DNA of 64,000 bases from Methylophilaceae bacterium (GTDB lineage: Bacteria > Pseudomonadota > Gammaproteobacteria > Burkholderiales > Methylophilaceae), in NCBI GenBank assembly GCA_036560445.1, contig DATBRG010000019.1, forward strand, positions 25,958 through 89,957. The letters run 5' to 3'. The position numbers were made by a program, and so were the translations under genes. Under the pieces are notes generated by a model. It saw nothing but the letters and a program-made list of their open reading frames with translations, was not told the DNA's origin and made no database searches. Numbering within the stretch: position 1 is the stretch's first letter; each line of letters starts with the position of its first letter. Of the stretch, positions 5,638-61,557 are shown piece by piece.

Positions 5638-7332
5638 TCACGAAACGACCAACAAATAGATCAACAAAAAATTCAAAATCAGCGAAAACAAGGCTATCCA
5701 TTGCCACTTTACCAGCTTGGCACGAGCAATAAGAGGCGTACGCTGCGGCGCCAGGATGGGCCTGAGTTCACCATGTTCAAGCGCCAGTAACATTTCTTCT
5801 GCGGTTTCAAAACGAGCGGCGGGTTCGCGTGCCACCGCTTTGAGTACGATATTCTCCAGCCAGCCGGGGATATCCGGCCGGTAACGTGTGGGCGGCACTG
5901 GGTCGCCAAAGCGCGGGCGCTGGAAGGGTTCGATTTCGCCGTAAGGATAACGTCGCGTTAGCAGGTGATAAAGCGTTACCCCGGCTGCATAGATGTCGCT
6001 GCTCATGCTTGCGGGCTGGCCGTCAAACAACTCTGGTGCCATGAAGCTAGGGGTGCCCGGGTTCTGCATGGCAGAAATGCTGCCGGTACCCATACTGAGC
6101 GCTACACCGAGGTCAAGTATGCGCAGGCGTTCGTCTTTCCCCTGGTGGATGTTGGCTGGCTTGATATCCCTGTGTACGATATTCAGGCGATGCAATGCGC
6201 CGAGGCCGCGCATGAGTTCAGTGCCTATGCGGCCAGTCTCTGTGGCGGTGAAATGGTGCCCGCTATCCAGCATCTTTTGTAGCGTCGCACCATCATGCCA
6301 ACTCATCACGTAGTAGAGCTGGCTGCGTTTGTCCATGGTCAGCGGCAGCACCTGCGGCACATATTGCGAGACAACGCGCTTGGCCAGCCACTCTTCATTA
6401 AGCAGGGCCTGACAGCTATCAGCATCTTCGGCCAGCAGCGGTTGCAATGTTTTAAGCACGAAATGCTGGCCGCTGCCGCTGTTGCGTACCTTATATAACA
6501 GGCTGGCGCGCGACTCATGTAGCAATTCCACCACTTCGAAACCATCCAGAGACTCGCCGGGCTTGAGTTTGGGTGGCACATGCAGGTGTTTCCCGCCCGC
6601 CAGTAGCTCTGAAAGAGTATCCTCGCCCGGCTGGTCTATACGTATGACCAATGCTGTCGCATTGTCCTGCCCATTTTGCGCCAACGCATCGTTGACCAGC
6701 CGGTCTGCGATCATTTGCGGGTTGTCATAGAGCCGGAGGGCCTCATGAATGGATTTTTGTCCGAGCACTTCCCATACACCATCGCTCATGAGTGCGAACA
6801 CATCGCCCGCCTGTAATTCGCCCTCGGCATAATCTGCCATCAAGTGCTGGTCAAGGCCGACTGCACGCTTGAGCACGTGGCGCATGTCGGGCCTATCCCA
6901 CACATGGTCGGCAGTGAGCTGCATCAACTCACCCTGGCGCAAACGGTAAATGCGGGTATCGCCGACATGGGCAAGGTAATAGCGCTGACCGCGTAGTACC
7001 AGTAGCGAGAGCGTAGTAGCCATGCCGGCGAGGTCACGATTAGAGGCAGCCTGCGCCAATAGCCAGCGGTTAGCAGCGCCGAGAACCTTATCCAACGATA
7101 CGTGTACTTCCCAGGTATCGGGGGTGGCATAGTAGTCAGACAGTACGCTACGTACGGTCATTTCAGCCGCTTCCAACCCGCCAGCATTCCCGCTAACACC
7201 ATCGGCCACGGCTACTAGCGCGCCTTTGATAGACATTTGCTCGCTGGTGGGCGTGACGATGCCGCAGTAATCCTCGTTACGTTCGCGCGGGCCGGCCTGG
7301 CTGCTTTGGCCGACGCGGAATTGCAAGGTCAT
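5638..7332 (-). CDS. Fused PP2C phosphatase / Hanks-type Ser-Thr kinase with C-terminal transmembrane anchor
   Basis: The N-terminal half has PP2C motifs (RERNEDY, VADGVSG, MSDGVWE, GQDNATA). The C-terminal half has kinase motifs (VLKTL Lys, HRDIKPANI, DLG, APE). The last about 25 aa are hydrophobic (WQWIALFSLILNFLLIYLLVV). Confidence 0.85.
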   Translation of the reverse strand: MTLQFRVGQSSQAGPRERNEDYCGIVTPTSEQMSIKGALVAVADGVSGNAGGLEAAEMTVRSVLSDYYATPDTWEVHVSLDKVLGAANRWLLAQAASNRDLAGMATTLSLLVLRGQRYYLAHVGDTRIYRLRQGELMQLTADHVWDRPDMRHVLKRAVGLDQHLMADYAEGELQAGDVFALMSDGVWEVLGQKSIHEALRLYDNPQMIADRLVNDALAQNGQDNATALVIRIDQPGEDTLSELLAGGKHLHVPPKLKPGESLDGFEVVELLHESRASLLYKVRNSGSGQHFVLKTLQPLLAEDADSCQALLNEEWLAKRVVSQYVPQVLPLTMDKRSQLYYVMSWHDGATLQKMLDSGHHFTATETGRIGTELMRGLGALHRLNIVHRDIKPANIHQGKDERLRILDLGVALSMGTGSISAMQNPGTPSFMAPELFDGQPASMSSDIYAAGVTLYHLLTRRYPYGEIEPFQRPRFGDPVPPTRYRPDIPGWLENIVLKAVAREPAARFETAEEMLLALEHGELRPILAPQRTPLIARAKLVKWQWIALFSLILNFLLIYLLVVS

Positions 7333-29008: not shown

Positions 29009-29479
29009 TTGTTTTCAGAATACTACTTACGAATCGAAAAGCTTATAGAAGCGCATAAACCTATTCCCGGTGGCTTGCTGCCATTGCTGCATGCTATTCA
29101 GGATGAAATTGGCTATATCCCGGAAGAAAGCTATGAGGGGATTTCTAAGACACTTAATCTTTCGGTGGCAGAAATACATGGGGTTGTGAGCTTTTATCAT
29201 CATTTCAGAACCAAAGCTCCGGGCAAACATATTCTGCATATATGCAGGGCTGAGTCATGTCAGGCGATGGGGTCGGCAGAGTTGGAGGGTTATGCGAAAT
29301 CAACATTGCATGTTGATTATCACCAAACGACTGCAGATGGGGCCATTACATTGGAGCCTATCTACTGCCTTGGTAACTGTGCATTGTCACCGGCTGTCAT
29401 GTTGGATGAGAAGCTTTATGGCCGAGTCAACAAGGCCAAGTTAGATTATTTGATTACCGCATCAAGAGCTGATAAATGA
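29009..29479 (+). CDS. fdsG: NAD-dependent formate dehydrogenase gamma subunit (NuoE-like 2Fe-2S)
   Basis: 156 aa. TTG start with CAGGAG upstream. The C..C...C..C pattern (ICRAESC...CLGNC) resembles NuoE. Confidence 0.85.
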
Positions 29480-31029
29480 CCATTAAAGTATATGTCCCAA
29501 GGGATTCTTCAGCTTTGTCGATGGGCGCAGACCATGTTGCTATGAATATCCTGGTCGAAGCTGCGCAAAGAGGGGCTTCGATTGAGATCATCCGAAACGG
29601 TTCCAGAGGTATGTATTGGTTAGAGCCGATGGTGGAAGTGCTAACCGATAAAGGAAGGGTTGCTTACGGACCAGTATCTCCTGCCAGTATTAATGGATTA
29701 TTTGAATGTAATTTCCTCTATGGAGGAGAACATCATCTACGAATCGGGCTGACTGACGAAATACCTTGGTTAAAAAAGCAGGAACGTCTCACTTTTGCTC
29801 GAGTAGGAATCACAGATCCAGTTTCACTTGAAGATTACATTTGCCACGATGGTTATCGTGGTTTGCGCAGCGCCTTGGAACTTTCACCCGCAAATATCGT
29901 GCAGGAAGTCACGGATTCCGGTCTGCGCGGGAGAGGCGGCGCCGCGTTCCCTACAGGGATCAAATGGAAAACAGTACTGGGTTGTGAGGCAGACCAGAAG
30001 TACATCGTCTGCAATGCAGATGAAGGAGACTCAGGTACCTATTCTGATCGCATGATCATGGAAGGTGACCCCTATGTTCTTATCGAAGGAATGACTATTG
30101 CAGCCTTGGCGGTAGGCGCAACGCAGGGCTATATCTATCTTCGTTCGGAATATCCCGATGCTTTGAAGATACTTAATGAAGCCATTGCCAATGCTTATGC
30201 AGCAGGTTACCTAGGTAATAACATTCTCAATAGTGGCCATCACTTTGATCTGGAAGTCCGCCGCGCCGCGGGCGCCTATATCTGTGGCGAAGAAACTTCA
30301 CTATTGGAAAGTCTGGAAGGAAAGCGTGGGGTGGTGCGTTTCAAGCCTCCACTACCTGCTGTTGAAGGGCTGTTCGGTAAACCAACGGTCGTCAATAATG
30401 TGATTTCTTTTGCAAGTGTGCCTATCGTTCTGGATAAAGGCGCCAGTTTCTATAAAGACTATGGCATGGGCCGCTCACGTGGCACCTTGCCTATACAGTT
30501 GGCTGGCAATATCAAGCATGGCGGGCTAGTAGAGAAGGCTTTCGGCATTACTTTGCGAGAGCTTTTATATGATTTTGGCGGAGGTTCTGCCACTGGTCGC
30601 CCGATTCGAGCAGTACAGGTTGGCGGCCCATTGGGGGCGTATTTGCCGGAATCACAATTCGACACACCGCTGGATTATGAGGAGTTCTCGAAAATCTGGG
30701 CGGTGCTTGGTCATGGCGGCATCGTTGCTTTTGACGATACTGTAGACATGGCCAAGATGGCACGTTATGCGTTTGAGTTTTGCGCCATCGAATCCTGCGG
30801 CAAATGTACCCCTTGCAGGATTGGCTCTACACGCGGTGTAGAGGTCATGGACAAAATTATTGCTGGCACTCAAGTCAGCAAGAACATTACTTTGGTTCGG
30901 GAGTTAAGCGACACCTTGCTTAATGGTTCCCTTTGCGCACTGGGTGGCATGACGCCCTATCCGGTTATCAGCGCAATGAATCATTTCCCCGAAGACTTTG
31001 GCCTGCTAAACGGCGAACGCGCTGCATAA
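29476..31029 (+). CDS. fdsB: NAD-dependent formate dehydrogenase beta subunit (NuoF-like, FMN/NAD)
   Basis: 517 aa with [23 protein letters not shown] and [10 protein letters not shown] motifs of the NuoF family. Confidence 0.9.
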
Positions 31030-31049
31030 ACAGGTTTTAAGGAGGCATC

Positions 31050-33896
31050 ATGGATACGCAAAAAGATTACGGAACACCAACCAAGATTAGTGAAAAACTC
31101 GTTACGGTAGAGATTGATGGTCAGCAAGTGTCGGTGCCTGCTGGTACCTCTATCATGCGGGCTGCGATAGAAACCGGAATTAATATTCCCAAACTGTGTG
31201 CCACTGATAGCCTGGAACCTTTTGGTTCATGCCGCCTATGCTTGGTTGAGATTGAAGGCCGTAAAGGTTACCCGGCTTCATGTACCACACCAGTTGATGA
31301 AGGCCTGAAGATACACACACAGAGCCCGAAACTGGCAGATATAAGGCGTGGCGTCATGGAGCTTTATATCTCGGATCATCCGTTGGATTGCCTCACCTGT
31401 GCAGCAAACGGTGACTGCGAGTTGCAGGATATGGCAGGTGCAGTCGGTTTGCGTGAGGTGCGCTATGGCTATGATGGTGAGAACCATCTGAAAGCAGAGA
31501 AAGATACCTCTAATCCATATTTCACATTCGATCCGTCCAAGTGCATCGTGTGTTCCCGATGTGTTCGTGCTTGTGAAGAAACGCAGGGTACTTTTGCCCT
31601 GACTATCCATGGTCGGGGGTTTGATTCAAAAGTGGCTTCCGGCACCGAGAATTTTCTTGAATCCGAATGCGTTTCATGCGGAGCCTGTGTGCAAGCCTGC
31701 CCAACTGCAACTCTCATGGAAAAGTCGGTAATCAATCATGGCTTGCCAGAGCACAGTGTCACCACTACTTGTGCTTATTGTGGTGTGGGTTGCTCATTCA
31801 ATGCCGAGATGAAGGGCGAAGAAGTAATCCGCATGGTGCCAAATAAAAATGGCGGTGCCAATCACGGGCATTCTTGCGTTAAAGGGCGTTTTGCTTGGGG
31901 TTATGCCACCCATAAGGATCGCATCACTACCCCCATGATACGCAAGAGCATCAAGGATGCATGGCAAGAGGTCTCGTGGGAAGAAGCAATCAATTATGCT
32001 GCCAGTGAACTCATGCGTATTCAAGCCAAATACGGTAAGGATTCGATAGGCGCGATTACCTCTTCACGCTGCACCAATGAAGAAGTGTATGTAATACAGA
32101 AACTGGTACGTGCGGTATTTGGCAGTAATAACGTAGACACCTGTGCCCGGGTCTGCCATTCCCCAACCGGCTATGGCCTGAAACAGACATTGGGTGAATC
32201 CGCCGGTACCCAGACTTTTGATTCGGTCATGAAATCCGATGTGATCATGATTATTGGCGCCAACCCTACGGATGGTCACCCGGTATTTGCCTCACAAATG
32301 AAACGCAGGTTGCGTGAAGGCGCCAAGCTGATCATCGCTGATCCGCGTGCCATTGACTTGGTTTCATCTCCACACGTCAAGGCAGACTACCACCTGAAAT
32401 TACGCCCGGGAACTAATGTTGCCCTGATCTCTGCCATGGCACATGTGGTGGTGACAGAAGGTCTTGCCGACGAGGAGTTCGTTAAAGCTCGTTGTGAGTG
32501 GGATTCCTACACGATATGGCGCGACTTCGTTACCAAGCAAGAAAACTCGCCTGAGGCATTGGAAGCTGAATTGGGCATAGCGGCCGACGTTGTTCGTGCT
32601 GCTGCGAGGCTTTATGCCACTGGTGGCAATGCGGCGATCTATTATGGTCTGGGGGTCACTGAGCATAGCCAGGGCTCTACCATGGTGATGGGTATCGCTA
32701 ATCTTGCCATGGCTACCGGCAATCTTGGCCGTGAAGGTGTGGGCGTGAACCCATTGCGTGGGCAGAATAATGTTCAGGGCTCGTGCGATATGGGGTCCAT
32801 GCCGCACGAATTCACTGGCTATCGCCACGTTTCGGATGATGCCACCCGTGCATTATTTGAAGCTGCTTGGGGCAGGCCGCTTAGCAGCGATCCGGGTTTG
32901 CGTATCCCGAATATGCTGGATATGGCTGGTGAAGGTACTTTCAAAGGCTTATATTGCAATGGCGAAGATATCGCACAATCCGACCCCAATACCCAGCATG
33001 TGACCCATGCGCTTGAGTCTATGGAGTGCGTGATTGTGCAGGACTTGTTCCTTAACGAAACCGCGATGTACGCGCATGTATTCTTCCCTGGCGCATCCTT
33101 TCTGGAAAAGAGCGGTACCTTTACCAATGCCGAGCGGCGTATCTCTCCTGTGCGCCGTGTGATGACGCCCAAGAATGGCTACGAAGATTGGGAAATCACG
33201 GCGATGCTTTCTACCGCTATGGGGTATCCGATGTTTTATAAACATGCGTCTGATATCCTGGATGAGATCGCCAGTCTGACGCCAACCTTCCAAGGCGTTA
33301 GCTTTAAAAAGCTGGATGAACTAGGCAGCGTGCAATGGCCCTGCGATGAAGAGCATCCGCAAGGCACTCCGACCATGCATATTGATGAATTTGTACGTGG
33401 CAAGGGTAAATTCTTTATTACGCAATATATGCCGACAAGTGAGCGGGTAACAAGAAAGTACCCGCTTATACTCACTACAGGCCGTATCCTTTCCCAGTAC
33501 AACGTTGGTGCACAGACGCGGCGTACCGATAATGTTACCTGGCATACTGAAGACCGTGTGGAAATCCATCCACATGATGCTGAAGAGCGTGGCATCAAAG
33601 ATGGTGACTGGGTAGGTATTGCCAGTCGTGCAGGTGATACGGTACTTAGAGCCACGATCACTGAACGAGTGCAGCCGGGGGTTGTGTATACCACATTCCA
33701 TCATCCGGAATCTGGTGCGAATGTTATCACCACGGATAATTCTGACTGGGCTACCAACTGCCCTGAATACAAGGTGACGGCAGTGCAGGTAACGCGTGTT
33801 AACCAGCTATCTGAATGGCAGAAGCAGTATCATGAATTTAGTGACGAGCAGATTGCACTCGCCAATACACAGCCGGATGAAGCCAGAATTGAATAG
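31050..33896 (+). CDS. fdsA: NAD-dependent formate dehydrogenase alpha subunit (Fe-S + Mo-bisPGD)
   Basis: 948 aa. N-terminal 2Fe-2S and 4Fe-4S Cys clusters, CAYCGVGC, and a molybdopterin oxidoreductase body. Confidence 0.9.
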   Translation: MDTQKDYGTPTKISEKLVTVEIDGQQVSVPAGTSIMRAAIETGINIPKLCATDSLEPFGSCRLCLVEIEGRKGYPASCTTPVDEGLKIHTQSPKLADIRRGVMELYISDHPLDCLTCAANGDCELQDMAGAVGLREVRYGYDGENHLKAEKDTSNPYFTFDPSKCIVCSRCVRACEETQGTFALTIHGRGFDSKVASGTENFLESECVSCGACVQACPTATLMEKSVINHGLPEHSVTTTCAYCGVGCSFNAEMKGEEVIRMVPNKNGGANHGHSCVKGRFAWGYATHKDRITTPMIRKSIKDAWQEVSWEEAINYAASELMRIQAKYGKDSIGAITSSRCTNEEVYVIQKLVRAVFGSNNVDTCARVCHSPTGYGLKQTLGESAGTQTFDSVMKSDVIMIIGANPTDGHPVFASQMKRRLREGAKLIIADPRAIDLVSSPHVKADYHLKLRPGTNVALISAMAHVVVTEGLADEEFVKARCEWDSYTIWRDFVTKQENSPEALEAELGIAADVVRAAARLYATGGNAAIYYGLGVTEHSQGSTMVMGIANLAMATGNLGREGVGVNPLRGQNNVQGSCDMGSMPHEFTGYRHVSDDATRALFEAAWGRPLSSDPGLRIPNMLDMAGEGTFKGLYCNGEDIAQSDPNTQHVTHALESMECVIVQDLFLNETAMYAHVFFPGASFLEKSGTFTNAERRISPVRRVMTPKNGYEDWEITAMLSTAMGYPMFYKHASDILDEIASLTPTFQGVSFKKLDELGSVQWPCDEEHPQGTPTMHIDEFVRGKGKFFITQYMPTSERVTRKYPLILTTGRILSQYNVGAQTRRTDNVTWHTEDRVEIHPHDAEERGIKDGDWVGIASRAGDTVLRATITERVQPGVVYTTFHHPESGANVITTDNSDWATNCPEYKVTAVQVTRVNQLSEWQKQYHEFSDEQIALANTQPDEARIE

Positions 33897-33902
33897 CTCA
33901 TT

Positions 33903-34739
33903 GTGAAACTCCCTGCTGACACTATCGCGACTGAAGTAAGCTCCAGCCATTATCCGGTTCTGAAATGGGATCAAGGGCACATTCTTAAACTGGATGACTG
34001 TGTTGCGGAGGAAGTGCCGATCGCCATGGTTTATAACGGTGTTTCTCATGCCGTCATGCTGGCTTCCCCGCAAGACCTAGAAGACTTCGCCATTGGGTTT
34101 TCCTTATCTGAGGGCATTATCTCAAGCCTAAGTGAAATATACGGAATTGAGGTCATTCATCAGCCCAAGGGTATAGAACTGCATATCGATCTGGCCGCCG
34201 AGCGTTTCCAATTACTTAAAGAACGCCGCCGTAGTATGAGTGGCAGGACAGGTTGCGGATTATGCGGCGCAGAGAGTCTAGAGCAAGCGATGCGTATTCC
34301 AACTAATGTTATCAATATTGTCGATCGTATTTCGAGTAAGGCTATATACAAGGCACACCTGCATATTAGAAGCCAACAAAAACTGCAGGTACAGACAGGG
34401 GCCACGCATGCTTGTGCGTGGGTTAAGACGAATGGAACTATCGAGAATTTGAGGGAAGACGTGGGCAGACACAATGCACTCGATAAGCTTATCGGTGCAA
34501 TGGCCAGAAAGCATTCAACTACTCCAGGATTTGTGTTGACGACAAGCCGTGCGAGCTACGAAATGGTACAAAAGGTTGCAACTGCTGGCATCCCTATACT
34601 CGTTGCGGTTTCTGCGCCTACTGGACTAGCCATCAGGATTGCACAGAATTGTGGGGTTACCTTGGTTGGATTCGCGCGCAACCATCAACACGTGATCTAC
34701 AGCAGGCCAGAAAGAATCCTGCATAAGGAAGAAGCATGA
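33903..34739 (+). CDS. fdhD: Formate dehydrogenase accessory sulfurtransferase FdhD/FdsC
   Basis: 278 aa with GTG start and the GRTGCGLCG and GRHNALDK motifs of FdhD. Confidence 0.9.
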   Translation: MKLPADTIATEVSSSHYPVLKWDQGHILKLDDCVAEEVPIAMVYNGVSHAVMLASPQDLEDFAIGFSLSEGIISSLSEIYGIEVIHQPKGIELHIDLAAERFQLLKERRRSMSGRTGCGLCGAESLEQAMRIPTNVINIVDRISSKAIYKAHLHIRSQQKLQVQTGATHACAWVKTNGTIENLREDVGRHNALDKLIGAMARKHSTTPGFVLTTSRASYEMVQKVATAGIPILVAVSAPTGLAIRIAQNCGVTLVGFARNHQHVIYSRPERILHKEEA

Positions 34740-34960
34740 ATACAGAACGTCTAATTATCATGGCCAATCAAATTGGTGATTTTTTTTGCTCTCATCCTGA
34801 TGCCGGTCAAGCAAAGACAGACATCGCCAACCACCTGAAGCGCTTTTGGGCACTGAGTATGCGCAAGCAGATTGTCGCTCATGTCCATGAGAAGCATGGT
34901 GTAGGTCTAGACCCCATCGTCGGCGATGCCATCAAGGAAAATCAATCTATTCTGATATGA
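34736..34960 (+). CDS. fdsD: Formate dehydrogenase delta subunit
   Basis: 74 aa with the LIIMANQIGDFF...HLKRFW pattern of FdsD. Overlaps the fdhD stop by 4 nt. Confidence 0.8.
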   Translation: MNTERLIIMANQIGDFFCSHPDAGQAKTDIANHLKRFWALSMRKQIVAHVHEKHGVGLDPIVGDAIKENQSILI

Positions 34961-35089: not shown

Positions 35090-35668
35090 TTATTTGCTGA
35101 TGACCACCAAAAAAGAACCGAGTGAAATGGCCAGAGCCAACGATGACAGGAAAATTGCCCATTTTGCTAGCTTGCGATCTTGAATGGGCTGCTGGCCAAG
35201 CGTTGAAGCAGTTTGTTCTTCGCTTCTGCTTGGGTCAGTGGCTAGATGTAGCAATCCCATGACTTTATGCACCATGTCACCATCGAACGCGTAAGGGTCG
35301 AATTTTTTATAGCCATTGCTTGAAAGCAGGTGTTTCATTTGATTGTCTACGCCAACATATTTCATGGACCAATCGGGAAACGAAAGCTCGCTAATCATCT
35401 TTCTGGAAAGCAGCTTCAGATCCTTGTGGCGGCTATCTTCAAGTAATGTTTTATAAAGCGTATCAACGGTGCTTTCCTCACCTTCAAGGCATTGAAAGAA
35501 ACAGCCGTCGCCGAAATAAAGTACCCCGACCAAACCTTTGATACGGTTATTACTTCTGGATTTGGCCAATATGCGGGCTACATTTGGTTCTATGGTTCCT
35601 GCGCTATCGGTAGCGGCAAAAGTTGAACGGCTGATGTAGATGATCTGGATTAAATTTTTCATGGGCAT
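35090..35668 (-). CDS. BLUF (FAD blue-light sensor) domain protein with C-terminal membrane anchor
   Basis: 192 aa with the BLUF key residues present: Tyr11 (IIYISRS), Asn40/41, Gln59 (FFQCLEG), DSRH, Trp100 and Met102 (FPDWSMKY). C-terminal hydrophobic tail WAIFLSSLALAISLGSFLVVI. Confidence 0.85.
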   Translation of the reverse strand: MPMKNLIQIIYISRSTFAATDSAGTIEPNVARILAKSRSNNRIKGLVGVLYFGDGCFFQCLEGEESTVDTLYKTLLEDSRHKDLKLLSRKMISELSFPDWSMKYVGVDNQMKHLLSSNGYKKFDPYAFDGDMVHKVMGLLHLATDPSRSEEQTASTLGQQPIQDRKLAKWAIFLSSLALAISLGSFLVVISK

Positions 35669-35690
35669 ATTCCGGCAAATGAGTGACAGG

Positions 35691-35999
35691 CTAAATCGGT
35701 TTGGCAGGTTTTTTACGTAGCGATTCCGGCATGATCAGGCTGGCAGAATCCCAACCTTCAATTTCCAGTACCTTGCTCAAACATTCCTCCATGACCGCGT
35801 GCGCTTGCGCAGTTGCGGTGGCAATGGTCTCATGCACCAGACGGTCATTCGCGGAGTTGTTGGCGCAATTTATTTGATATTCAAAAAGCTCGCGTAATTC
35901 AAAAATGGTTCGACAAACCTGGGCTGGGCAAGCGCATTGATAAACCAGCGATTGATCAATGACCTTGCTGATCTGCGTGGCATTATATTTTTCTTGCAT
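35691..35999 (-). CDS. Cys-rich 102-aa hypothetical protein
   Basis: ORF spaced 3 nt after the cyclase gene and 22 nt before the BLUF gene. Five Cys, including the C-x-C-x4-C motif (YQCACPAQVC). I recognise no family. Confidence 0.6.
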   Translation of the reverse strand: MQEKYNATQISKVIDQSLVYQCACPAQVCRTIFELRELFEYQINCANNSANDRLVHETIATATAQAHAVMEECLSKVLEIEGWDSASLIMPESLRKKPAKPI

Positions 36000-36002
36000 G
36001 AA

Positions 36003-37034
36003 TTACACTCCGATTTTCTGTAATGAAGTATCTGGTTTAAAGGCAACACAATCGACACCGGCATCAAAGCCGCGAATGGCTACGGTACCAATATCTCTTG
36101 CTGTTGGGGTGTGAAGACGCGAGGTTAAGTTTATTTTGTTGGTGGCGATCACTTCTCCGGCATTGGCCATGCTGCAGAGACGGGCTGCGAGGTGAACAGT
36201 AGCGCCGATCACATCGTATTGTTGCCTTTGTCCTGCCTGATTGGAGTCACCGATGAATCCCGCGAGCACCAGACCCTCTGCCACGCCGACACCGAAGGGC
36301 ATACTATCCTGGCTGGTGCTGCGTGCGAGTTCGAGACCACAACGCAAAGCCAAATATGATCTGCCCATACCTCTGAATATTGCCATGACACCATCGCCGG
36401 TGTATTTGACGACAGCCCCCTCGAATTGGTTGATATGCCGTGCTTGCAGGCTTAGAGATTGATTCAGTAATTTGAAAAATTTACGTGGTGGCAGGTGTGT
36501 GATCGCTTCTGATGAGCGGCGAATATCGGTAAAAAGTATAGCCGCCTCAAACATCTCAGCTTCATCGGTGTGATCGCCATCAATCGCCGAAATTGCACCT
36601 TCCGGCAACAGGTTAGCCAAACGCTCAGCCCTTGTCTCAAGAACGCGCGCTGCATATCTTGCTTTGACCAAGTCGCCTAATGACATAAAAAAACGCTCAT
36701 CTGAAAGCGGTTTTTCTATGACGACGTCTACACAGCCGGTTTGTTTGGCCCAGGCCCGCACCGACTTCATGGCAGGGCCCGCTGAAACAATCGCCATGAC
36801 CGCCGTCTGAGGTGCAATGAGCTTGACCGCACTACAATTGATCAAGCTGTCCGGCTGGTGAAAGTGATAATTAAAGATCACCACATCTGGCTTTGATTCG
36901 GTGATTGCCTGATGTAAGTCTAGGCTTGCAGATATTCTGGTTATATTGTCAAAACCGCGTTGTTTCAAGTCTTCAATTAGGATTGAAGAAGTGTACTCAT
37001 CGCTATCGATCAAAAGTAGTTTTGCGTTTTTCAT
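36003..37034 (-). CDS. Pseudo-receiver (REC-like) + class III adenylate cyclase
   Basis: 343 aa. The REC fold keeps Asp10/Asp12 and a K-P motif (EKPL), but Asn55 sits at the phospho-acceptor position (VVIFNYH). The cyclase domain has metal Asp170 (LFTDIR) and Asp214 (TGDGVMAIF), and the Lys210/Asp274 adenine-specifying pair. His281 replaces the usual Asn (GATVHLAARL). Confidence 0.8.
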   Translation of the reverse strand: MKNAKLLLIDSDEYTSSILIEDLKQRGFDNITRISASLDLHQAITESKPDVVIFNYHFHQPDSLINCSAVKLIAPQTAVMAIVSAGPAMKSVRAWAKQTGCVDVVIEKPLSDERFFMSLGDLVKARYAARVLETRAERLANLLPEGAISAIDGDHTDEAEMFEAAILFTDIRRSSEAITHLPPRKFFKLLNQSLSLQARHINQFEGAVVKYTGDGVMAIFRGMGRSYLALRCGLELARSTSQDSMPFGVGVAEGLVLAGFIGDSNQAGQRQQYDVIGATVHLAARLCSMANAGEVIATNKINLTSRLHTPTARDIGTVAIRGFDAGVDCVAFKPDTSLQKIGV

Positions 37035-37160
37035 AAATCATTCAAGTTAAGGTTGGCGCTGAAAGAAGTTAGCCACCGCCATCGGACAAGCTGAACGCAT
37101 GAAAAATTCAAATTCGTGCACTAAATATTATGACTATAATGATAATGCGGCTCTAGCGAC

Positions 37161-37223
37161 ACCATATCTTTGCCTTTTTATCCGGGATTGTGTTCGTTGC
37201 TGACCAATCGGAATGCTAGTTCA
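37161..37223 (+). repeat. Copy B of the ~62-bp imperfect direct repeat
   Basis: ACCATATCTTTGCCTTTTTATCCGGGATTGTGTTCGTTGCTGACCAATCGGAATGCTAGTTCA. Lies 127-189 nt upstream of the cyclase start. Confidence 0.7.
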
Positions 37224-37275
37224 CTCAACTAGCCTTTGATCCATACATCTACATGCATGATTAGGAATCTCGCGT

Positions 37276-38028
37276 TCAGGTCCCCGGCTTGCATTGTCGA
37301 TTAACTTCGGACTGAAGTTGGCTAAATCCTGCGGTGGCTCCTGTCGCCTCGGCAAAGGGGTTGGACTCGACATACAAGATATTTTCCATCGTTCGCTCCC
37401 CGTAATGCTTGGATAGCTCTGTAGCCCTACAGCCACAAGCTTCTTGCGCCTTTTCCTGGCCCGGAAGGCTTTCCACACAGGTCTCGATCATTTTTGCTGT
37501 GAATGTTGGACTCCAAGGAGTGTTGTTGCTTGCATCAGTACCTGTTACCGCGCGAGCTTGAGAGAGCAAGGCATACATCATTTCAACGCTCGCATGCAGT
37601 TTGCCCAAGGCGTTGACTTGGAGCATGTCTTGGTGAGCAATCCCGAGCGTCTGTGGGTTTACCTTGAAGCTTGCCGATAGTCGCGGCTGGTCTGGCAAGC
37701 TGTAGCCTTGAGAGAAAAGCAAAATCTGCTTGGCCGGGTCTTTATCCAGAATTTCATGTGCCTCATTGAGGTCGTCCATTGGTAGACTCATGTTCATGAT
37801 TGCCTCATAACCACCCGTATCTGAGGGTTCCTTCGCGATAACCTCGAGCTTGATACGTTGATCGTTGTAGGCATGTTTAAACGCTGGTGGTATACGTTCC
37901 AGCATATAGGTGGCTTCTGTTTTTTCCAACTGGGCAAGCCCCTCTGTACTTAAACATGGCGCAGCCACAGCCTGAGTCGATGTAAGAGCGAGTAGAAAAA
38001 TGAAAGCGGCAGTAAAGCGAATCATCAT
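37276..38028 (-). CDS. Exported hypothetical protein (250 aa)
   Basis: Signal peptide FIFLLALTSTQAVA/AP and several Cys (APC, ETC, ACGC, RQC). I recognise no family. Confidence 0.6.
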   Translation of the reverse strand: MMIRFTAAFIFLLALTSTQAVAAPCLSTEGLAQLEKTEATYMLERIPPAFKHAYNDQRIKLEVIAKEPSDTGGYEAIMNMSLPMDDLNEAHEILDKDPAKQILLFSQGYSLPDQPRLSASFKVNPQTLGIAHQDMLQVNALGKLHASVEMMYALLSQARAVTGTDASNNTPWSPTFTAKMIETCVESLPGQEKAQEACGCRATELSKHYGERTMENILYVESNPFAEATGATAGFSQLQSEVNRQCKPGT

Positions 38029-38036
38029 GAACTTCC

Positions 38037-38570
38037 TTACTTCAGCGTCGGTATAAGCTGATTCATGATTTCGGGATCATCTGGCTCGGTAGGGGTGGGA
38101 AAACTTTGCACCTTCGTTCCATGCTCCGTAATCAGGAACTTGTGAAAATTCCATAACGGCTCCTGGCCAGTCGCTGATTTGAGCTGCTTGTAAAAGGGAT
38201 TTGCGTTTTTCCCGACAACGGAACTGCTTTCGACCATAGGAAACTTCACACCATAAGTCAGCTTGCAGAAGCTGCCGATTTCCTTGTTGCTCGCGTATTC
38301 CTGACGGAAGTCGTTGGAGGGAAAGCCGACTATCAACAGCCCTTTTTCCTTATACTGGCTGTATAACTTCTCCAACTTATCGAACTGAGGAGTAAAGCCG
38401 CACTTACTGGCGGTGTTGACCACCAGAATAGTGTTATCCCGATACTGACACAGGTCCAGTTTGCCGCCTTGTAGTGTACTGAACTGATGATTGAGCAGCG
38501 CCGGACATTCACCTGCATTCGCAAACCAAGGCAACATCAAGCTGAACAAAGCCAAAATGGTGTATTTCAT
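38037..38570 (-). CDS. Periplasmic glutathione peroxidase homologue (Cys type)
   Basis: Start moved to MKYTILALFSLMLPWFANA (38570). Motifs NTASKCGFT, FPSNDF and WNFHKFL indicate the GPx/BtuE family. The 278-aa track ORF would run over the cstA start. Confidence 0.85.
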   Translation of the reverse strand: MKYTILALFSLMLPWFANAGECPALLNHQFSTLQGGKLDLCQYRDNTILVVNTASKCGFTPQFDKLEKLYSQYKEKGLLIVGFPSNDFRQEYASNKEIGSFCKLTYGVKFPMVESSSVVGKNANPFYKQLKSATGQEPLWNFHKFLITEHGTKVQSFPTPTEPDDPEIMNQLIPTLK

Positions 38571-38757
38571 CTGGATTTCTCGTATGAATTTTAATGATGA
38601 GGTTGAGCATGTTTGGTAGGTGCAAGTTCCAACGCATCGTGAACATGATGCTCTCCCAGCTGATCTACGTCCCATTGCGCCTTGGTAGGTAGCTACCCAA
38701 TTATGGGTTAGTCTGTTTATACTTAGGGACAACTTTGATTCTATACCTGCCAACAAC

Positions 38758-40827
38758 ATGAAAAAATATCTTAAACCACTGATATGGCTAATTTTGGCTG
38801 TGCTTGGTGCAGCTGCACTTGGCGGCATAGCCCTGCACCGTGGTGAAAGCATTAATGCACTGTGGTTCATCACCGCGGCAGCCTGCGTTTATGCACTTGC
38901 CTATCGTTTCTACGCGGCATGGATAGCCGCCAAGGTACTAGTGATTGATGAGACCCGCGCTACCCCGGCTGAACGGTTGGATAATGGTCGCGACTTTATC
39001 CCCACCAACAAGTGGATTGTCTTTGGACATCACTTTGCTGCGATTGCCGGCCCTGGCCCCCTGGTTGGTCCGACGCTAGCGGCTCAATTTGGCTATTTGC
39101 CAGGCACCCTGTGGATATTGATAGGTGCCGTACTGGGCGGTGCCGTGCAGGATATGGTGACGTTGTTCCTCTCAACCCGCCGTGATGCCAAAAGCCTGGG
39201 CCAGATGGCACGTGACGAGCTTGGGCCCATCGGTGGTGCGGCAGCGTTGATAGGTACCTTTGCCATCATGATTATTCTTATTGCTGTGCTCGGGCTGGTG
39301 GTTGTTAACGCCATGAAGCACAGCCCGTGGGCCACTTCTACCGTGGCAGCGACCATCCCGATTGCGATGATAGTTGGTCTTTACATGCGTAACTTTCGCC
39401 CTGGACAGGTACTGGAAGCGTCGGCACTCGGTGTTGCCTTATTATTACTGGCTGTCGTAGGTGGTGGCTGGGTAGATCATCACGCAAGCCTGCGCGGCTT
39501 GTTCGACCACGAGGGGTTGACGTTGGCTTGGTGGATCATCGGTTATGGTTTTGCTGCTGCGATTCTGCCGGTCTGGTTGTTACTGGCGCCGCGCGATTAC
39601 CTCTCCACCTTCATGAAACTCGGTACGGTAATCCTACTCGCCATTGCCATCGTGATGTTGCAGCCGCATGTGAAGATGCCAGCGCTCACGCAGTTTACTG
39701 ACGGCACCGGCCCTATCTTCGGCGGCAAACTGTTTCCGTTTGTATTTATTACCATCGCCTGCGGCGCTATCTCTGGCTTCCATGCGCTGATTGCCTCTGG
39801 CACCACACCCAAGCTATTAGCTAATGAGCGCGATATTCGCATGATAGGTTACGGCGGTATGTTGCTGGAATCGTTCGTTGCCATCATGGCGATGATTGCC
39901 GCTACCGTACTTGACCCCGGTGTATTCTTTGCCATCAATAGTCCGGCGGGTATTGTTGGCAAAGAGGCAGTGGATGCAGTTGCCAAGATTTCTTCATGGG
40001 GCTTCCCCGTGACAGTAGAGCAGATGCAGATTCTGGCCAAGCAAATGGGTGAGGCTACGTTGTTTGCCCGTACGGGTGGAGCCCCATCATTGGCGGTGGG
40101 TATGGCTAGCATCTTTGGTAGTGCCTTCGGCCAAAGCCTTCTGGCACTGTGGTACCACTTTGCCATCATGTTTGAAGCCATATTTATCCTTACCACACTG
40201 GATGCCGGTACGCGCGTCGGTCGTTTTATGTTGCAGGATATGTTAGGTAACATCTGGCCTAAACTGGCGCAGACCTCCTGGATGCCATCGGTGTTATTGA
40301 CCAGTGGCCTAGTGGTGGCTGGCTGGGGTTATTTTCTTTACATCGGGGTCATTGATCCGAATGGTGGGGTGAATATCCTGTGGCCACTGTTCGGCATCGC
40401 CAACCAAATGCTGGCGGCCATCGCTTTGTGTGTGGCGACGGGCATCCTGATCAAGTCTGGCAAACTCCAGCATGTTTGGATTACCGGATTGCCATTGGCA
40501 TGGCTCGTCACTATCACCACTACGGCAGCCTGGGAAAAGATCGCCAGTAGCGATACGCGCGTCGGCTTCTTTGCTGCTGCTAATGACATGGCAAGCAAAC
40601 TCGCTGCTGGTAGCCTGCCGCCAGAAAAGGCGGCAGTAGCACCTCAGCTTATTTTCAACCAGCATTTAGATGCCTGGCTTACACTGTTCTTTGTAATTGT
40701 ATTGTGGACGGTGATTTTCGATATGTTACGTGTTTGCAGCCGTCATCTGGCCAGTAAGCCGGTGCCGCCATTGACCGAATCGCCGCATATTCCAAGCCGT
40801 CTGGTGGAAGATTGGGTGAGGGATTAA
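38758..40827 (+). CDS. cstA: Carbon starvation protein A (peptide/pyruvate transporter family)
   Basis: 689 aa, multi-TM, with the HFAAIAGPGPLVGPTLAAQFGYLPG signature. Confidence 0.9.
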   Translation: MKKYLKPLIWLILAVLGAAALGGIALHRGESINALWFITAAACVYALAYRFYAAWIAAKVLVIDETRATPAERLDNGRDFIPTNKWIVFGHHFAAIAGPGPLVGPTLAAQFGYLPGTLWILIGAVLGGAVQDMVTLFLSTRRDAKSLGQMARDELGPIGGAAALIGTFAIMIILIAVLGLVVVNAMKHSPWATSTVAATIPIAMIVGLYMRNFRPGQVLEASALGVALLLLAVVGGGWVDHHASLRGLFDHEGLTLAWWIIGYGFAAAILPVWLLLAPRDYLSTFMKLGTVILLAIAIVMLQPHVKMPALTQFTDGTGPIFGGKLFPFVFITIACGAISGFHALIASGTTPKLLANERDIRMIGYGGMLLESFVAIMAMIAATVLDPGVFFAINSPAGIVGKEAVDAVAKISSWGFPVTVEQMQILAKQMGEATLFARTGGAPSLAVGMASIFGSAFGQSLLALWYHFAIMFEAIFILTTLDAGTRVGRFMLQDMLGNIWPKLAQTSWMPSVLLTSGLVVAGWGYFLYIGVIDPNGGVNILWPLFGIANQMLAAIALCVATGILIKSGKLQHVWITGLPLAWLVTITTTAAWEKIASSDTRVGFFAAANDMASKLAAGSLPPEKAAVAPQLIFNQHLDAWLTLFFVIVLWTVIFDMLRVCSRHLASKPVPPLTESPHIPSRLVEDWVRD

Positions 40828-61218: not shown

Positions 61219-61557
61219 ATGCGTCGTATTCATATCTTGTTAGTTCTGGCTCTATTATCGCCACTGGTGGCCTTGGCTGCGGGTAATCCGCCAAATCTGG
61301 AGCCCTTGCCAGAGCCACCACCACCACCGGCAGGCCTGGAAGGCCCGGATGCTGAGCCGCAGATCACCATCACCAAAAAAGGTACGGATAAGGTTGAAGA
61401 ATACCGTATCAATGGCGAGCTTTACATGATGAAGATCACGCCATCACATGGGGTTCCTTATTACATGGTGAAAGAGGATCAAAATGGGGGATGGTCGCGC
61501 TTCGAGGATTCCAACTCGCCCATCAGTATTCCAAAATGGGTGCTGTTTAACTTCTAA
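61219..61557 (+). CDS. Exported DUF2782-like protein
   Basis: Start moved to MRRIHILLVLALLSPLVALA (61219, GAGG upstream). Pro-rich linker followed by ITITKKG...EEYRINGELYMMKITP. The track ORF start at 61027 overlaps the LOG gene. Confidence 0.65.
   Translation: MRRIHILLVLALLSPLVALAAGNPPNLEPLPEPPPPPAGLEGPDAEPQITITKKGTDKVEEYRINGELYMMKITPSHGVPYYMVKEDQNGGWSRFEDSNSPISIPKWVLFNF

Follow-up and report, generated by a model that had tools for sequence, protein, structure and literature searches.

A pseudo-receiver adenylate cyclase encoded with a three-helix Cys/His protein and a short BLUF protein: a candidate light-responsive cAMP operon in Methylophilaceae

The window analysed here is a stretch of 64,000 nucleotides (nt) from a Methylophilaceae metagenome-assembled genome (MAG; GenBank assembly GCA_036560445.1, contig DATBRG010000019.1, positions 25,958 to 89,957 of the forward strand). 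It contains three adjacent minus-strand genes, which encode a class III adenylate cyclase with a receiver-like N-terminal domain (CYC), a small Cys/His protein (SML) and a short protein with a BLUF photoreceptor domain. We found that CYC and SML form a conserved unit to which BLUF is a facultative addition, and that SML is a new three-helix Cys/His domain, identified by profile comparison as the stand-alone homologue of the domain that ends LitR-type MerR regulators. The three genes behave as one operon, and we consider, with a probability of about 0.5, that this operon uses three separate proteins to translate blue light or photo-oxidative stress into a cyclic AMP (cAMP) signal.

An earlier note, made from the letters of this DNA without database searches, had judged the three open reading frames (ORFs), separated by 3 nt between CYC and SML and by 22 nt between SML and BLUF, to be very probably a single operon. 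The coordinates were confirmed, and the short gaps together with the lack of terminator-like sites between the three genes support the operon. NCBI annotates the genes in the source Methylophilaceae MAG as an adenylate/guanylate cyclase domain protein, a hypothetical protein and a BLUF domain protein, and starts the last of these at the second ATG (35662), which gives 190 residues. Because of this start and of the orthologues, which open with M-x-NLIQ, the true gap between SML and BLUF may be 28 nt, and the BLUF residue numbers used here may be 2 too high. The 241-nt region before CYC is the sole sizeable gap on the minus strand in this part of the window. Upstream of CYC, neither a match to the sigma-70 consensus nor a promoter of the sigmaE/ChrR type was detected, the single sigmaE/ChrR-type match in the window lying elsewhere at 61457-61481, and no Rfam elements were found between 33 and 40 kb of the window.

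We scanned one genome per species and obtained 80 SML loci from Polaromonas, Ramlibacter, Rhodoferax, Methylotenera/Methylophilaceae, Gallionella/Sideroxydans, Opitutaceae, Mariprofundus, a Rhodospirillaceae MAG and others, Comamonadaceae included. In 79 of these loci SML is directly preceded by CYC on the same strand, the exception being cut by a contig end. The CYC stop and the SML start are a median of 2 nt apart, and the two genes overlap by 4 nt in 25/79 loci. The obligatory pairing is limited to the SML subfamily with at least 52% identity. Clustering of all neighbours of the pair revealed BLUF as the only recurrent co-oriented third gene. BLUF directly follows SML in 17/80 loci (Methylophilaceae 10, Gallionellaceae and relatives 6, Rhodoferax 1), at a distance of 10-40 nt in 16 and of 195 nt in one, and a BLUF gene is located within 2.3 kb in three further loci. 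The trio that the earlier note had pointed out thus recurs beyond the genome of the window and in other families. It is not a fixed set, however, as BLUF is absent within 6 kb in 60/80 loci and is therefore dispensable for the CYC-SML pair. Polaromonas eurypsychrophila, Ramlibacter terrae and Caenimonas terrae are culturable species that have the pair and lack BLUF. The identities of BLUF and CYC to the window proteins are correlated (r = 0.96 over 15 loci; approximately 30% versus 33% in Gallionellaceae), which fits a co-inheritance of BLUF with CYC accompanied by losses. Independent recruitment of BLUF in each lineage was considered and set aside, as BLUF has diverged in parallel with CYC, which speaks for the most part against such recruitment; the BLUF of a Rhodoferax locus (L041), 33% identical against 71% for SML, is the exception and was possibly recruited.

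Eight independent MAGs of Opitutaceae/Verrucomicrobia (L007, L012, L016, L029, L036, L049, L050 and L054) carry CYC-SML pairs that are about 70% identical to the betaproteobacterial versions, and this identity suggests that the pair moved horizontally across phyla. A Polaromonas MAG has two tandem CYC-SML pairs within 5 kb (L026:1548-2889 and L026:4925-6309), a duplication of the core pair, and in a Methylophilaceae MAG (L072:3484-6309) the cyclase is distributed over two ORFs between a photolyase gene and SML, by a frameshift or as a pseudogene. One 1.9-kb contig (L005) was binned as 'Methylobacter sp.' and is over its whole length 100% identical to the trio of the window; it was probably mis-binned, since the window matches a Methylophilaceae MAG.

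SML had no match in Pfam or NCBIfam. A collection of 5.8 billion proteins contains 290 clusters of it, with identities of at least 68% among the best 120 listed, and a profile search of 1.84 billion representatives returned 243 relatives. C24, C45, H56, W83 and P91 are invariant throughout the family, C22 is nearly so and P25 is conserved. The C-x-C-x4-C motif noticed earlier is indeed present as C22-x-C24-x4-C29, but only C22 and C24 of it are conserved family-wide, along with C45 and H56, whereas C29 and C73 are confined to the cyclase-linked subfamily. The AlphaFold2 model consists of three helices (pLDDT 90.4), and a Foldseek search of the PDB with this model returned no hit with an E value under 2.7, so that no known fold could be assigned. 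C22/C24 and C45 sit at opposite ends of helix 2 in the model, which makes a single intramolecular Cys3His site look unlikely.

The domain occurs as a stand-alone protein of about 100-145 residues and at the C-terminus of proteins of about 206-260 and about 300-340 residues. The long fusions begin with a MerR_1 domain; in such proteins, of about 330 residues, the SML profile aligns with the C-terminus. When the SML family was aligned by hhalign with the C-terminal domain of the MerR proteins, the probability was 98.6% (E 5e-16, 85 columns), the controls with the other two MerR regions were negative, and a regulator from Burkholderia anthina scored 51 bits. SML, which the earlier note had called unrecognisable, is on this profile evidence a stand-alone homologue of the domain at the C-terminus of LitR-type MerR regulators. 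One single protein (P0167, 229 residues) combines an SML-like N-terminus, ending just past the conserved His, with an AraC-type helix-turn-helix domain; either this is a genuine fourth architecture or a frameshift has produced an artefact.

The domain that precedes SML in the fusions was not recognised as Response_reg by sequence, the matches having failed or been marginal (E = 0.12). The AlphaFold2 model of a 222-residue fusion (P0217), calculated from 55 sequences, has a pLDDT of 91.5 and comprises a (beta-alpha)5 domain followed by three helices, and Foldseek superimposed the N-terminal domain on the receiver (REC) domain of DesR with a TM score of 0.72, an rmsd of 2.8 and a probability of 1.0. 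As far as this model tells, the domain is a receiver fold. Its acceptor position is mostly Glu. The receiver profile of CYC aligns in register with the fusion domain (DVVIFNYH versus DVxVLEYP) at P = 1.5e-4, compared with 0.16-0.32 for the controls. Each of the three main SML architectures pairs SML with a receiver fold that lacks the acceptor Asp. The MerR and the approximately 220-residue proteins carry both parts on a single chain, and the cyclase system encodes them in neighbouring genes that often overlap. Because they are fused elsewhere and adjacent here, the Rosetta-stone argument suggests that SML docks on the pseudo-receiver of CYC. A MerR helix-turn-helix domain is absent from all three window proteins.

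Published work describes class III LitRs as occurring mainly in Burkholderia, with a C-terminus that resembles no known domain and, for a recombinant protein, a light-dependent absorption change, and describes a class II LitR as the effector of a short LOV protein encoded next to it (PMC9758184). Genus and regulon make it very probable that the published class III and the MerR-REC-SML family are the same. We surveyed 80 metagenomic loci with full-length MerR-REC-SML proteins, many of them on short contigs, by clustering and scanning the neighbours, and the link to light came from this survey, not from the initial neighbourhoods in Thiocapsa and Methylohalomonas. At least one photolyase-cluster gene was found in 33/80 loci. 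The neighbours are SDR (19/80), DCC1-like (9), DNA photolyase and stand-alone EAL (8 each), GSHPx and DUF1731 epimerase (6 each), CMAS (cfa; 5), amine oxidase, DUF1365 and the cryptochrome/(6-4) photolyase-like DPRP (4 each) and BLUF (3). The EAL genes are mostly divergent from the regulator gene (L111, L116, L117, L121, L135, L136, L145 and L161), which hints at a cyclic di-GMP (c-di-GMP) branch of the same light regulon. The regulator of B. anthina and B. arboris is encoded among cfa, DUF2256, GTP cyclohydrolase I (folE), a sigma factor gene, DUF3429, SDR, FAD oxidoreductase, DPRP, DUF2878 and photolyase. MerR-REC-SML is followed by folE and SDR in Caballeronia, with pyp in the vicinity; on the Caballeronia plasmid pSBC1_3, pyp (photoactive yellow protein; L173:813-1190) is about 7 kb from the regulator, folE and SDR, with IS21 in between. 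The gene of P0217 is 3 kb from genes for a bacterial rhodopsin and an RPE65-type carotenoid oxygenase (L088:790-3068 and 6001-6669).

The cyclase pair shares these surroundings. The order CYC-SML-BLUF-GSHPx-amine oxidase-DUF1365-CFA-SDR-SnoaL-DUF3833 runs on one strand throughout in Gallionellaceae. Other loci have CYC-SML-DUF2256-DPRP (L071), photolyase-CYC-SML (L072), photolyase-DPRP-DUF2256-DUF3429-DCC1 located 2 kb downstream of CYC-SML (L075) or, in Mariprofundus (L077), GSHPx-BLUF-photolyase divergent from CYC-SML-lipocalin. GSHPx flanks CYC-SML-BLUF in Gallionellaceae and Mariprofundus, as it does in the window. With the SML domain in LitR-type regulators and CYC-SML in photolyase/cfa clusters, the link to light is stronger than the earlier note could know.

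A quite improbable alternative leaves light out altogether. SML would be a thiol or metal redox sensor that controls cAMP, and the photolyase, cfa and BLUF neighbours would merely mark general oxidative-stress islands. SML is rich in Cys, with C22, C24, C29 and C73 in the cyclase-linked subfamily; the neighbours at Polaromonas-type loci are FMN and FAD oxidoreductases, not light genes; and two MerR-REC-SML loci adjoin cydABDC, PMSR or hemerythrin. Yet the light-specific photolyase, DPRP and BLUF genes recur with both SML architectures in several unrelated lineages.

Guanylate_cyc (PF00211) matched CYC with E 5e-12 and 46.2 bits, well over the Pfam cut-off of 21.9, and the closest solved relatives of the catalytic domain are Ma1120, CyaB, LipJ and bPAC/OaPAC. 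Response_reg (PF00072) remained at 18.2-21.1 bits on the N-terminus, below the cut-off of 30.2, and the domain gave weak in-register matches to the receiver domains of RssB, PhoP and NtrC. By alignment, N55 occupies the place of the phospho-acceptor Asp found in RssB and PhoP; Asn stands there in 75/77 homologues, and D10, S84 and K108 are kept in this set. The pseudo-receiver fused to a class III cyclase that the earlier note had described is therefore borne out, and its receiver-like domain is predicted to be non-phosphorylatable. The metal ligands D170/D214 and the pair K210/D274, proposed earlier as the determinants of specificity, are each conserved in 76/77 homologues, and this pair predicts ATP as the substrate. 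R285 aligns with the Arg of Ma1120, CyaB and Cya and is kept in at least 90% of the 77. The earlier note had overlooked that His281 takes the place of the catalytic Asn, so that the family keeps five of the six canonical catalytic residues and deviates, in a conserved manner, at the remaining one. The cyclase domain might accordingly be thought of as dead, the protein being a scaffold or pseudo-enzyme that signals by protein-protein interaction only, and the replacement of the transition-state Asn in at least 90% of homologues speaks for such a protein. We regard it as very improbable: both metal ligands are retained together with the Lys/Asp pair and the Arg, which argues for selection on the active site, and His281 is itself conserved and not random.

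The BLUF protein matched PF04940 over all model positions (1-92 of 92) with E 1e-26 and 93.2 bits against a cut-off of 25. Its closest solved structure is BlsA (6W6Z, E 4e-19), with which it shares the identical motifs FFQCLEGE and WSMKYV; TePixD, OaPAC, bPAC and AppA are further relatives in the PDB. The photocycle residues that had been listed from the sequence (Tyr11, Gln59, Trp100 and Met102), as well as N40/N41, are conserved in 21/21 linked BLUFs and align with those of BlsA and TePixD. The C-terminal 19-mer of residues 172-190 has a mean Kyte-Doolittle value of 2.45, in line with the membrane anchor proposed before. Such a hydrophobic tail, not conserved in sequence, is present in all full-length Methylophilaceae orthologues, but it is absent from the BLUFs of Gallionella, Rhodoferax and Mariprofundus, and is hence a trait of Methylophilaceae and not of the system in general. 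The BLUF subfamily, of about 190 residues, has 782 clusters in the protein collection. A member with 52% identity heads a BLUF-EAL-PAS/GGDEF operon (L180:4001-6766), which is the known trans-acting pattern of short BLUFs, and the second-messenger enzyme that accompanies the subfamily apparently differs from genome to genome.

Our preferred reading combines these elements as follows. The pseudo-receiver and SML would dock together and constitute the regulatory module of a dimeric cyclase, as the fusions of the two domains suggest. BLUF with bound FAD would absorb blue light and alter its binding to this module, for which PixD with the receiver protein PixE and the short LOV protein with class II LitR are precedents, and the altered binding would raise or lower cAMP synthesis. 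The tail of BLUF would place the light step at the membrane in Methylophilaceae. Where BLUF is missing, the REC-SML module would respond alone via a Cys/His site, or would use an unlinked photoreceptor. The 60 loci without BLUF favour a self-sufficient core, and the spacing of 10-40 nt in 16 loci favours a direct partnership.

Several observations weigh against such a chain from light to cAMP. Some of the loci devoid of BLUF belong to Methylotenera, and the BLUF subfamily also occurs alone, in the cultured Methyloradius palustris and in L181. Within a Methylotenera locus (L008:9049-9998), a second tail-anchored BLUF paralogue (214-residue ORF) lies 2.7 kb from the trio. The BLUF gene of L077, L031 and L034 is outside the CYC-SML transcription unit, on the opposite strand or in another operon, so that a shared regulon could explain the proximity. 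Neither the window nor the CYC loci contain a gene for a CRP-like (cAMP receptor) protein, and the substitution of His281 for the transition-state Asn of the G-x-x-V-N-x-A-x-R motif may render CYC low or atypical in activity. The receiver domain of CYC resembles the MerR middle domain only weakly by sequence (hhalign probability 51%), the AlphaFold2 model of P0217 has a pTM of 0.62 and no confident docking of REC and SML, and remote stand-alone SML homologues (33-37% identity) adjoin neither cyclases nor recognisable receiver domains. The equation with class III LitR was drawn from genus and regulon and not by comparing sequences, and no light genes are found at the two MerR-REC-SML loci of Thiocapsa and Methylohalomonas. 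As an observation on its own, the second BLUF of L008 directly precedes a thioredoxin-like ORF of 101 residues.

In the main alternative, which is possible if somewhat doubtful, BLUF and CYC-SML are parallel members of one light or photo-oxidative-stress regulon. The cyclase would then be controlled only by its own pseudo-receiver and SML, whose Cys/His residues would sense singlet oxygen, reactive oxygen species (ROS) or redox state or would carry a chromophore, and BLUF would have other target proteins, as BlsA does. CYC-SML is complete without BLUF in three quarters of the species loci, BLUF can be separated from the unit, its subfamily occurs alone or with EAL, and GSHPx is a recurrent neighbour. 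C22, C24, C45 and H56 form a Cys3His-type pattern that resembles Zn-thiolate stress sensors of the ChrR/RsrA kind. A V. cholerae MerR-like regulator encoded next to phr, which may or may not belong to this family, has been proposed to respond to ROS generated by blue light (PMC5241685). Membership in a common regulon, on the other hand, does not require an arrangement as tight as a BLUF gene 10-40 nt after SML on the same strand in 16 species of at least three families, and it leaves the parallel divergence of BLUF and CYC, as well as the recurrence of BLUF beside MerR-REC-SML genes, without a ready reason. A further proposal, which we consider rather unlikely but with a chance that is still substantial, goes beyond the regulon: the REC-like domain and SML would together be an unrecognised, self-sufficient sensor of light or singlet oxygen, common to B12-independent LitR and the CYC family, CYC-SML would represent a class of light-gated cyclases free of BLUF, LOV, rhodopsin and bilin, and BLUF would be a lineage-specific add-on.

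The coordinates of the cassette and its flanking features are collected in Table 1. Two genes upstream of CYC, the GSHPx ORF of 278 residues (38037-38873) overlaps in its long form the start of a cstA-like gene at 38758; the product is probably a secreted glutathione peroxidase of 177 residues that starts at M102 with a signal-peptide-like sequence (MKYTILALF...). The 250-residue secreted protein encoded between it and CYC (37276-38028) was considered as a member of the system and dropped, as it is conserved in no other locus. The plus strand beside the cassette (29009-34960) carries an NAD-dependent formate dehydrogenase cluster, comprising 2Fe-2S thioredoxin-like and Nuo51-like subunits, a 948-residue catalytic subunit, FdhD and FdsD, which is consistent with a methylotroph host.

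Table 1. Features of the cassette and its upstream region, in window coordinates (aa, amino acid residues)
Feature	Position	Strand	Basis
CYC: pseudo-receiver / class III adenylate cyclase, 343 aa	36003..37034	-	ORF; NCBI HEY8118699.1
SML: three-helix Cys/His protein, 102 aa	35691..35999	-	ORF; HEY8118698.1, annotated 'hypothetical'
Short BLUF protein, 192-aa ORF	35090..35668	-	NCBI HEY8118697.1 = 190 aa from ATG 35662
Receiver-fold N-terminal domain of CYC, aa 1-125	36660..37034	-	Response_reg sub-threshold; N55 alignment
Class III cyclase catalytic domain of CYC, aa 156-343	36006..36569	-	Residue mapping on Ma1120, CyaB, Cya
BLUF domain, aa 6-103 (Y11, N40/N41, Q59, W100, M102)	35360..35653	-	Pfam full-length match
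BLUF C-terminal hydrophobic tail, aa ~170-190, predicted membrane anchor	35099..35161	-	Kyte-Doolittle
241-nt intergenic region upstream of CYC, presumed operon promoter	37035..37275	-	
Glutathione peroxidase (GSHPx), two genes upstream of CYC	38037..38570	-	GSHPx E 5e-30

If a short BLUF protein does control a separate cyclase, the system would show how BLUF signals pass between proteins and would offer modular parts for optogenetics. The anonymous 102-residue SML family gains a context, as its domain ends the B12-independent LitR-type regulators of photolyase/cfa clusters, which occur in Burkholderia and numerous environmental bacteria, and the light-sensing mechanism of LitR could be approached conveniently through the stand-alone SML, the REC-SML proteins of about 220 residues or the cyclase pair, all of which are small and tractable. 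The analysis further suggests that cAMP is part of the light and photo-oxidative stress response in non-phototrophic bacteria of freshwater and cold habitats, such as Methylophilaceae, Polaromonas, Gallionella and Opitutaceae. In the literature library searched by full text, neither a BLUF acting in trans on a separate cyclase nor the SML protein is described; the earlier note, too, had known of no such arrangement. The components are of known kinds; what is new is the arrangement and the employment of one domain, SML, in both LitR-type regulators and cyclases.

To our knowledge, all characterised flavin-dependent photoactivated cyclases are single polypeptides. bPAC/BlaC and OaPAC combine BLUF with a class III cyclase as the window does, and both the BLUF and the cyclase of the window match PDB chains of bPAC/OaPAC. 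The two domains are fused in those proteins, whereas here they are encoded by separate genes with another gene between them, and the BLUF protein is predicted to be tail-anchored. Unlike bPAC/OaPAC, the window cyclase has a pseudo-receiver, a genetic need for SML and His instead of the catalytic Asn. The expected output is light-controlled cAMP in both cases, the light dependence of the window system being a prediction. Ma1120, P. aeruginosa CyaB and Rv1900c/LipJ are the best relatives of the CYC catalytic domain and have the same metal and substrate residues; their N-terminal regulators are different, and Ma1120 and CyaB have the canonical Asn where the CYC family has His. The PapB-PapA system likewise encodes a short BLUF together with a second-messenger enzyme, the EAL phosphodiesterase in PapA, although its messenger is c-di-GMP and not cAMP and it lacks SML and a pseudo-receiver. 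BlsA of Acinetobacter baumannii, the closest solved BLUF, also acts in trans, but it is soluble and targets transcription regulators, in contrast to the window BLUF with its membrane tail and cyclase operon.

In the PixD-PixE system of Synechocystis, a short BLUF protein binds the receiver protein PixE, whose receiver is not used for canonical phosphotransfer. The window resembles it in that a short BLUF is encoded with a receiver-fold partner, here a pseudo-receiver cyclase in the same operon, and PixD-PixE offers a model of how BLUF could dock on a REC-like surface; PixE, however, has no enzyme domain and no SML-like partner, and its output is phototaxis instead of cAMP. The B12-free LitR-type MerR regulators that probably constitute class III have the same C-x-C-P...C...H helical domain after a receiver fold without the acceptor Asp, whereas the window system has no MerR DNA-binding domain, delivers its output through a cyclase and places the REC-like domain and SML on two polypeptides. 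The class II LitR PmlR2 with the short LOV protein PmSB-LOV provides the case in which a flavin photoreceptor acts in trans on the sensor region of a LitR encoded next to it (PMC9758184), as we propose for BLUF and the CYC-SML pair.

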